Source: Deltaproteobacteria bacterium
GTDB lineage: Bacteria; Myxococcota_A; UBA796; SXON01
Length of the DNA: 64,000 nucleotides
NCBI GenBank assembly: GCA_014191855.1
Contig: BJHF01000017.1
Span: 5,255-69,254, forward strand
Direction of reading: 5' to 3'
A model generated the notes under the pieces. It was not told where the DNA came from. It saw only the letters and a list, made by a program, of their open reading frames with translations, and searched no databases. Shown piece after piece: positions 57,111-57,442 of the stretch (positions are counted from its first letter, which is position 1; every line of letters starts with the position of its first letter). The position numbers were made by a program, and so were the translations under genes.

Positions 57111-57294
57111 GTGCAGCGGGGGCCCCGGGCGATGCGACAGGCCAGGTTACTCGGCCAGAAAGCGTAGCCGCGCATCGCGATTTCGCCGCGCTAGTGTCGC
57201 GACACAGGCAGCGTCGCCCCGGTGGCGCTGCGATCCGCCGCGACGCCCGGTTTTGCAAAAGGACAGGGCTGCGCGGATCGCCCTGAAGGTTCTT

Positions 57295-57442
57295 GCCAAC
57301 CGGGCTCGACCTACTCGCCGGAGTATGGGCACCCCGGTTGAACCTGGCAACCGGGCTCGACCTACTCACCGGAGTAGGGGCACCCCGGTTGAACCTGGCA
57401 ACCGGGCTCGACCTACTCGCCGGAGTAGGGGCATCCCGGTTG
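57295..57442 (+). repeat. Array B: three tandem 51/52-bp hairpin repeats without spacers, variant of array A
   Basis: The unit is gcaaccgggctcgacctactc(g/a)ccggagtaggggcaccccggttgaacctg, at 57295, 57347 and 57398. It has the same inner stem CCTACTC/GAGTAGG and the same linker aacctgg as array A. The outer stem carries a compensatory change (A:T in array A becomes G:C here). Confidence 0.9.

Follow-up and report, generated by a model that had tools for sequence, protein, structure and literature searches.

Palindromic repeats located between bacterial genes are known from several groups, and two kinds stand closest to the locus presented here. Repetitive extragenic palindromes (REP) of Enterobacteria and Pseudomonas, together with bacterial interspersed mosaic elements (BIME) and REPIN, are imperfect hairpin-forming palindromes, the REP being ca. 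20–40 nt long, high in copy number, dispersed and usually co-transcribed with the flanking genes, and they build mosaic arrays with other motifs and linkers (PMC3333891, PMC3116915). REP types, e.g. y and z, differ by changes which preserve complementarity, BIME-2 are tandem, and a conserved GTAG is located 5' of the hairpin foot (PMC3333891). In Neisseria, the arrays of Neisseria intergenic mosaic elements (NIME) are found at syntenic sites, with lengths that vary, and acquired DNA has recombination endpoints in them (PMC1797815). In this study we analyse 64,000 nt (the window) of LBMAG42, a Lake Biwa metagenome-assembled genome (MAG) of a Deltaproteobacteria bacterium (contig BJHF01000017.1), in which the space upstream of the rlmB gene is occupied by three tandem hairpin units, here called array B, while a related array A lies at the other side of a 7.09-kb gene island. 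We give about an even chance to the reading that array B is a lineage-private intergenic hairpin repeat of REP/BIME- or NIME-like kind, which serves as a recombination substrate for gain or loss of the island.

The arrays and the elements accompanying them are the following:

50058–50139, + strand: leader A, orthologous to the leader of the sister lineage (alignments)
50154–50350, + strand: array A, four A-type units at 50154–50197, 50205–50248, 50256–50299 and 50307–50350 (TRF, alignment, covariance model)
57127–57207, + strand: leader B (pairwise alignment, blastn, repeat family D20, consensus fold)
57215–57297, + strand: H3-type hairpin, stem GCGATCCGC/GCGGATCGC, between leader B and array B (repeat family D11, blastn, alignment)
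57297–57442, + strand: array B, three B-type units joined by AACCTGG, at 57297–57340, 57348–57391 and 57399–57442 (TRF, unit alignment, covariance model)
56334–56414, + strand: H3-type hairpin between the gene of a reverse transcriptase–Cas1 fusion (RT-Cas1) and a PDDEXK open reading frame (ORF) (repeat family, blastn, alignment)
2748–2819, + strand: distant H3-type hairpin, stem GCGATGCGC/GCGCATCGC (blastn, alignment)

Similarly to REP and BIME, the units are intergenic imperfect palindromes predicted to form hairpins, their variants preserve complementarity, and they stand in mosaic with another motif and with linkers. They differ in being 44-nt two-tier hairpins with a large internal loop, which exceed classical REP in length and are built in another way, in having no REP/iREP pairs, in carrying GTAG within the inner stem, in a conserved leader placed ahead of the array, and in number, there being seven units at two loci in the window. 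Genomes with REP have a cognate RAYT (REP-associated tyrosine transposase, Y1 type), while none is known here from the part of the window ORFs that was scanned. The likeness to NIME concerns non-coding arrays at syntenic intergenic sites, with lineage-specific length and content, of a family confined to one lineage; in Neisseria, acquired DNA was proposed, and in part shown, to cross over at such arrays, and mobile elements to integrate there (PMC1797815). A corresponding behaviour is found here, as the same site between a GT87 glycosyltransferase gene and rlmB is occupied in the window and in a sister lineage, its content differs, and the island endpoints are located at array ends. The dRS3 repeat ATTCCCN8GGGAAT is, however, unrelated in sequence to our unit, and NIME, of which a genome has hundreds of copies, are built of heterogeneous RS segments set between inverted repeats of 20 bp (PMC1797815). 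The element is new and private to its lineage; it belongs to the broad class of intergenic palindromic repeat arrays, being a member of neither REP/BIME nor NIME.

Anatomy of the leader-plus-array composites

As read from the alignments, array B is the diverged sister of array A, and it forms one of two paralogous non-coding composites, each made of a structured leader of ~90 nt followed by tandem 51-bp units. A unit consists of a 44-nt hairpin and a 7-nt linker, AACCTGG. The preliminary description of this DNA had three units with a 51/52-bp period starting at 57127. The number of units, as well as the inner stem and linker common to both arrays, agrees with our alignment, but the period is exactly 51 bp (TRF on array B: 57297–57442, 2.9 copies, 95% matches, score 271; on array A: 50153–50350, period 51, 3.9 copies, 97% matches), and 57127 begins leader B, the array itself starting at 57297. 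Its end was placed correctly, leaving 37 nt between 57442 and the rlmB ATG at 57480.

The predicted unit fold is a two-tier hairpin, with an outer stem of 7 bp in the A-type (CAACCGA/TCGGTTG) or 8 bp in the B-type (CAACCGGG/CCCGGTTG), an internal loop of 6x6 or 5x5 nt, respectively, an inner stem of 7 bp (CCTACTC/GAGTAGG) and a tetraloop. The latter is GCGG in array A and GCCG, ACCG and GCCG across the units of array B, as had been reported. The predicted folding energy of a single unit is −21 to −26 kcal/mol for RNA (z about −4) and −11 to −14 kcal/mol for DNA (z about −3.7), and the whole leader-plus-array loci reach z of −4 to −5.8 in a window of 68% G+C. The unit core pattern occurs 13 times against 0.11 expected, and the covariance model recovers each unit with an E-value of ~1e-15 (70.7–71.7 bits for array B, 68.5–74.4 bits for array A). 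The 51-bp hairpin repeat is real, far beyond chance. The three-unit B locus is identical in an independent ENA assembly (L103) and in another sample of the same lake (L113), so it is not an assembly artefact, and the copy number is 3 in all three assemblies of the population.

Every unit stands in direct tandem on the + strand, with no head-to-head or tail-to-tail pairs, and GTAG is present only in the 3' arm of the inner stem (GAGTAGG), the hairpin foot being CAACC/GGTTG. Each unit has a GGA made up of the final base of the loop and the two stem bases next to it (GCGG-GAG or GCCG-GAG), where it is not clearly exposed. Integron attC sites were considered and rejected, since only the GTTGAAC end resembles R' and the 51-bp tandem spacing is unlike that of cassettes.

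Mycobacterial interspersed repetitive units and variable-number tandem repeats (MIRU/VNTR) are 40–100 bp tandem repeats, a 51–53 bp class included, located between same-strand genes of a high-GC genome. Array B shares with MIRU this position and genome type; it differs in that MIRU contain a small ORF which is coupled to the flanking genes, overlapping their stop and start codons, and no conspicuous hairpins, whereas array B has stops in the rlmB frame (TAG at 57426–57428, within unit B3), and no copy-number variation is seen in the three array B assemblies. Two of three reading frames of a unit are open on each strand. As 51 nt equal 17 codons, an ORF (50023–51651, +) crosses leader A and array A in frame into the neighbouring TPR gene, and a 208-aa antisense ORF over locus B was called as a gene in ENA (P0032). 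Array A is open in the TPR frame, nothing suggests its translation, and both ORFs are likely spurious gene calls.

The leaders begin close to the upstream stop codon, at ~45 nt (leader A) and 16 nt (leader B), and have four blocks in common: GGGCGATGCGACAGGCC, GGCCAG, CGCATCGCG and GTCGCGACACA. They are 72% identical over 87 nt (blastn), and the units of arrays A and B 90%. The blocks are conserved and complementary, and one C-G to U-G change in the consensus fold fits an RNA of the + strand. Leader A is 93% identical to that of the sister lineage over 143 nt (window 50011–50153 vs L114 1375–1517), with 96% over the last 123 nt, while the adjacent GT87 gene shows 88% identity overall and 81% at third codon positions; leader A is therefore more constrained than synonymous sites.

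Between leader B and array B stands a hairpin of the H3 family, defined by the stem GCGATSCGC/GCGSATCGC with variable self-complementary interiors. Among its copies, to which L105 (~60–165) and L126 (1636–1706) add, a compensatory change is seen, from C:G to G:C. Both the sister and the third lineage have a copy right upstream of rlmB, and the window has none there. The leader hairpins use the same stem as H3 (GCGATGCG/CGCATCGC). By analogy, its occurrence in mosaic with the units and its lineage-variable presence can be described as REP/BIME-like behaviour.

Possible constraint on the hairpin fold

The A- and B-type consensus sequences differ at five positions of the 51-nt unit, i.e. 7, 8, 23, 33 and 38. 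Positions 7 and 38 pair with each other, as A:T in the A-type and G:C in the B-type, which bears out the paired outer-stem change noticed previously. The same holds for the additional G:C pair lengthening the B stem, as a T to G change at position 8 creates a new pair with C37. Position 23 lies in the tetraloop and position 33 in the internal loop. The covariation alignment comprised eight hairpins, six of them distinct, the sister-lineage unit included. Across the eight, 93% of cells are paired, and 7:38 alone is changed on both sides, being AU in three A-type rows and GC in three B-type rows.

The preliminary description took this change as indicating selection on the folded structure, a view which we find plausible and which comparison of the units supports in part. 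When five random substitutions per 51-nt unit were simulated, a Watson-Crick-preserving double change appeared in 4–6% of cases, which gives the compensatory pair a P of ~0.04–0.06. Variable columns are commoner among unpaired positions (7 of 14) than among paired ones (5 of 30; six distinct units; Fisher one-sided p = 0.027), which is, modestly, the direction expected under hairpin constraint. On the other side, the observed covariation score was reached by 27 of 500 column shuffles, and three unit variants carry uncompensated stem breaks (G30T in B1; G31C in A1 and in the sister-lineage unit). Since units are homogenised within an array, the A-type against B-type comparison counts as approximately one comparison and one event. 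The + and − strands of the units fold equally well and no pair is G:U-specific, so RNA is not distinguishable here from single-stranded DNA, nor is the transcribed strand. Without any selection, intra-strand template switching (quasi-palindrome correction) can likewise bring paired changes into a DNA palindrome, and it would account for the stem-lengthening change in B as well.

Island gain or loss at the GT87–rlmB site

By their sequence and position, arrays A and B with their homologous leaders are two direct repeats bounding the RT-Cas1 island. Its components and flanks are:

48778–50010, + strand: GT87 glycosyltransferase gene, left chromosomal flank (Pfam, orthologues)
50351–57442, no strand assigned: island between the 3' ends of arrays A and B, 7.09 kb (tblastn synteny, sister contigs, L126)
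50422–51651, + strand: tetratricopeptide repeat (TPR) protein gene, 409 aa, GDX79840.1 (Pfam TPR_12, tblastn, NCBI)
51652–52532: non-coding gap of 880 nt, from the TPR gene to the Cas2-like ORF
52533–52769, − strand: Cas2-like ORF, 78 aa, overlapping the RT-Cas1 end (ORF list, gene tables, alignment)
52763–56284, − strand: RT-Cas1 fusion, 1173 aa (Pfam RVT_1 and Cas_Cas1, NCBIfam cas1, PADLOC Cas1_IIIb 423–1159)
56541–57110, + strand: PD-(D/E)XK (PDDEXK_9) ORF, 189 aa, GDX79843.1 (Pfam, NCBI)
57480–58337, + strand: rlmB (SpoU methyltransferase), 285 aa, right chromosomal flank (Pfam, NCBI annotation RlmB)

The corresponding site was compared in four groups of genomes, ordered by GT87 identity:

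LBMAG42 (window), GT87 100%: leader A, four A-type units, and an island which ends with leader B, H3 and three B-type units
Sister lineage (Logan SRR215247xx; contigs L114–L116 and L105–L107), GT87 88% aa: leader A' followed by an A-type unit up to a contig break, beyond which come an A-type unit, an H3-type hairpin and rlmB
Third lineage (L126), GT87 74% aa: 437 bp to rlmB with an H3-type hairpin, no leader and no units
More distant relatives, GT87 54–59% aa: 1–3 kb to rlmB, no island genes (tblastn)

On the basis of this comparison, 50351–57442 is an insertion/deletion polymorphism whose endpoints are the 3' ends of the arrays. The island carries its own diverged leader and array at the right end. 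Two histories would fit the sequences: a Campbell-type crossover between an island-borne and a chromosomal array, or a single acquisition of the whole array-island-array segment with a later deletion between the arrays in the sister lineage. Contigs of the assemblies are broken where the arrays lie. In the sister lineage no RT-Cas1 was detected; the closest homologue in the global search is 74% identical, and the three RT-Cas1 homologues whose samples were looked up came from runs other than those of the sister. The G+C content of the island (0.69) matches its surroundings (0.68), so its composition does not point to a foreign origin. At the left island junction, right after array A (50355–50373), a run of C passes into a run of A, CCCCCCCAAACAAAAAAAA, which has no counterpart after array B.

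The favoured reading of array B as a private repeat acting in recombination can be put as a chain of steps. The hairpin would be kept by structural constraint, while the units within an array would be homogenised by slippage or unequal crossing-over. Both arrays lie on the + strand between + strand genes, hence array B is probably co-transcribed, and the resulting cluster of stable stem-loops might give 3'-end protection, partial termination or insulation. Hairpin clusters devoid of U-tracts act as terminators in GC-rich genomes (PMC8355165); array B is alike in having several predicted stable hairpins next to one another soon after a stop codon, no U-tract and a GC-rich genome, although those clusters are not made of one repeated unit and have no conserved leader. 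The clearest role is at the DNA level, where arrays A and B would be the substrate of recombination, which their coincidence with the island endpoints suggests. The island could have entered by a crossover of its own array with the chromosomal one, or a recombination of A with B could have removed it from the sister. What we infer is transcription, any function at the RNA level and the mechanism of recombination; anatomy, folding energies, restricted distribution, island endpoints and leader conservation are direct results.

The RT-Cas1 protein is rare, with five homologues, 51–74% identical, among 5.8 billion proteins. Its N-terminal domain of 420 aa is conserved and uncharacterised. A Cas6-like processing domain was considered there and dropped, as a low-confidence AlphaFold model (pLDDT 63) gives weak VirB4/Cag-beta/HerA-type matches; the full-length model (pLDDT 50) was too poor for use. 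In the three RT-Cas1 loci which were fetched (L001, L002 and L003) a Cas2-like ORF of 76–78 aa always follows RT-Cas1, and in L001 and L002 a TPR homologue accompanies it. The 78-aa ORF of the window gave no family match in domain and family searches, and 'Cas2-like' refers to its position and size only. No CRISPR (short palindromic repeats, clustered and regularly interspaced) array is present anywhere in the 64-kb window (TRF, repeat-family analysis) or in the 10-kb flanks of L001, and the same holds for effector genes. Hairpin units are likewise missing from L001 (10-kb flanks), L002 and L003. These loci without arrays, and the sister with arrays and no detected RT-Cas1, speak against the arrays being indispensable to RT-Cas1.

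The PDDEXK_9 domain covers residues 83–184 of the 189-aa ORF, which is probably a truncated remnant, the C-terminal fragment of a longer gene, and suggests a rearrangement beside the RT-Cas1 start. In L002 the gap measures 960 nt and contains a 37-nt AT-rich repeat, GTGCCGATAATGCTAATTATGTCCAACGGAAATCACT, twice (5279–5315 and 5579–5615, 300 bp apart); one similar motif is found in the window gap near 52050–52085 (− strand). The gap motif has no Rfam match and could be an operator or a repeat remnant.

Distribution and competing explanations

Searches beyond the locus returned little. In the window Rfam gave no match at gathering threshold, only chance-level hits with E above 0.3 around both loci, and the unit covariance model found the seven units at the two loci only. 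Apart from contigs of the same or sister population, the model detected no unit in ~750 kb of related lake Myxococcota MAG loci, and neither units nor leader were found in 47 rlmB-containing loci of related MAGs and the three RT-Cas1 loci (TRF, blastn, covariance model); the rlmB relatives of the window are freshwater Myxococcota MAGs. The exact pattern CTCGACCTACTCNNNNGAGTAGGG has no match in GTDB representative genomes or JGI metagenomes, and 52 single metagenome matches to the linker pattern GGTTGAACCTGGCAACC, all without hairpin context, were discarded as chance. A four-frame chimeric translation of the arrays used as a protein query returned the B locus only. When the antisense translation of array A was searched exhaustively with HMMER, the B locus and one plausible relative, P0055 (ENA contig of 2,021 bp), came up, the other matches being mostly unrelated eukaryote-type repeats with a 17-aa period. 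P0055 has three 17-aa repeats (NRGAPTPACRSTSVSGG) 61% identical to the antisense-translated arrays A and B; its linker is another one, and its residues vary at the place of the presumed loop. Judging by these features, it is probably a diverged third array in another metagenome. As Rfam, pattern, covariance-model and translated searches were nearly empty, the hairpin-array family is very narrowly distributed.

This narrowness is among the points that weigh against a REP- or NIME-like recombination repeat, as a REP-like family is expected to be numerous; here there are two loci in 64 kb and none in the related MAG sequence, the exact pattern is missing from the GTDB and JGI sets, and the translated searches added only P0055. 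The uniform direct orientation of units, the lack of GTAG at the hairpin foot and of a known RAYT in the scanned part of the window ORFs point in the same direction. The scans also found no sigma-70-like promoter on the + strand near the arrays, the only promoter-like match being on the minus strand inside array B, and no intrinsic terminator at the arrays; neither array is followed by a U-tract, which disposes of an intrinsic terminator, and no convincing sigma-54 or sigma-70 promoter was found in linker or leader by eye or scan. Finally, under a passive model it is a coincidence that both copies, with their leaders, stand exactly at the ends of an island bearing cas1-cas2-type genes, and the conservation of leader A, far above synonymous sites, hints at a specific unnamed function.

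We consider it unlikely that the arrays are merely a duplicated quasi-palindrome, shaped at the DNA level by template switching and gene conversion into neutral VNTR-like arrays, with no selection on the fold. The single compensatory event, the uncompensated stem breaks in three unit variants, the homogenised units and the contigs breaking at arrays, as they do at plain repeats, would all agree with it, and the T8 to G change pairing with C37 perfects the palindrome as templated correction predicts. Such a process does not explain, however, why variation is enriched at unpaired columns (p = 0.027), why the 5x5 internal loop was retained in A, B and the sister unit instead of being 'corrected' into stem, why the copy number is 3 in three population assemblies, and why purifying selection apparently acts on the leader next to it. 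A structured non-coding RNA gene standing alone, e.g. a CsrB/RsmZ-like protein sponge with the leader as its 5' domain, would account for the latter (93–96% identity of leader A between lineages vs 81% at third codon positions), for the conserved internal loop and the GGA at the loop/3'-stem junction of every unit, for the complementary leader blocks with a C-G to U-G change compatible with + strand RNA, and for the good folding of whole loci (z −4 to −5.8). We nevertheless regard it as quite unlikely, given that no promoter or terminator is predicted for a discrete transcript, Rfam gives no match, the GGA is half buried in the stem, and the element is missing in close relatives at 74–86% protein identity, which is unusual for a regulatory small RNA.

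The neighbourhood of the arrays raises the matter of CRISPR. CRISPR arrays associated with RT-Cas1 (PMC5541045, PMC6821258) also have palindromic direct repeats, a conserved leader and a flanking RT-Cas1 plus Cas2-like module; here, in contrast, a constant 7-bp linker within the 51-bp period replaces unique spacers of ~25–50 bp, effector genes are lacking, and homologous RT-Cas1 loci (L001, L002, L003) do not contain the same repeat type. With no spacers, a CRISPR array is rejected. The arrays might still be functionally coupled to the RT-Cas1/Cas2-like module, as its DNA target, an att-like site, a spacer-less CRISPR-like array or an RNA for the reverse transcriptase, the array-island-array segment being one acquired unit, which seems to us fairly improbable. 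In its favour, a cas1-cas2-type adaptation module stands between two leader-plus-repeat arrays, as many CRISPR loci are laid out, the 3' ends of the arrays are exactly where the island stops, the island bears its own diverged leader (72%) and units (90%), the element is otherwise almost absent from public data, and RT-Cas1 stands in the window without a canonical CRISPR array. Against the coupling speak the constant linker, the RT-Cas1/Cas2-like loci without hairpin arrays (L001 with its 10-kb flanks, L002, L003), two of three having a TPR gene, the sister that keeps leader and units though no RT-Cas1 was detected, and the N-terminal domain, which is not Cas6-like (low-confidence model, weak VirB4/HerA-type matches). 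The proposal in which leader-plus-hairpin arrays are the cognate nucleic-acid partner of the CRISPR-less RT-Cas1/Cas2-like/TPR module, either as integrase target or att-like site or as a spacer-less array transcribed for the reverse transcriptase, is in our opinion distinctly improbable. Scarcely credible is a retroelement-like island with the composites as long terminal direct repeats, copied by the reverse transcriptase and integrated by Cas1, the sister composite being a solo-LTR-type (long terminal repeat) scar. The ~300-bp direct repeats around an island coding for reverse transcriptase and integrase, the single composite at the sister site, the empty third-lineage site and the A-run after array A recall such an element, but the repeats are just 72–90% identical and differ by an 80-nt hairpin, RT-Cas1 is antisense to them, terminal repeats are not seen in L001 and L002, and a target-site duplication was not identified.

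On its own, array B adds one to the intergenic hairpin repeats that are restricted to a lineage, and its signs of structural constraint are weak but real. Its interest comes from marking the exact bounds of a recently gained or lost 7-kb island with a very rare array-less RT-Cas1. If the arrays are more than passive crossover sites, the locus would be an entry point to the function of array-less RT-Cas1, and if the coupling to the module were true, the arrays would form the ends of a mobile or defence element based on Cas1 and new in kind. Even as an ordinary recombination repeat, it would offer a clean example, beyond Neisseria and enterobacteria, of repeat arrays organising island exchange.

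Two other repeats were met during the searches. A perfect palindrome of 22 bp, GACCTACTCAATTGAGTAGGTC, recurs in IMG/VR viral contigs (L117–L125; GC about 62–65%); some of the fetched stretches contain it twice, and one contig of 20.9 kb five times. Its arms are those of the inner stem of our units, CCTACTC/GAGTAGG, but the outer stem, the linker and a tandem order are all lacking; it was rejected as a relative of the units and is probably an operator-type site of phages with no relation to them. Tandem repeats of 42–54 bp were noticed in relatives just upstream of the rlmB match (L057 122–252, L070 9452–9787, L072 9510–9708) or overlapping it (L058 4886–5019); they are unrelated to the hairpin units and probably encode part of the low-complexity N-terminal extension of rlmB.

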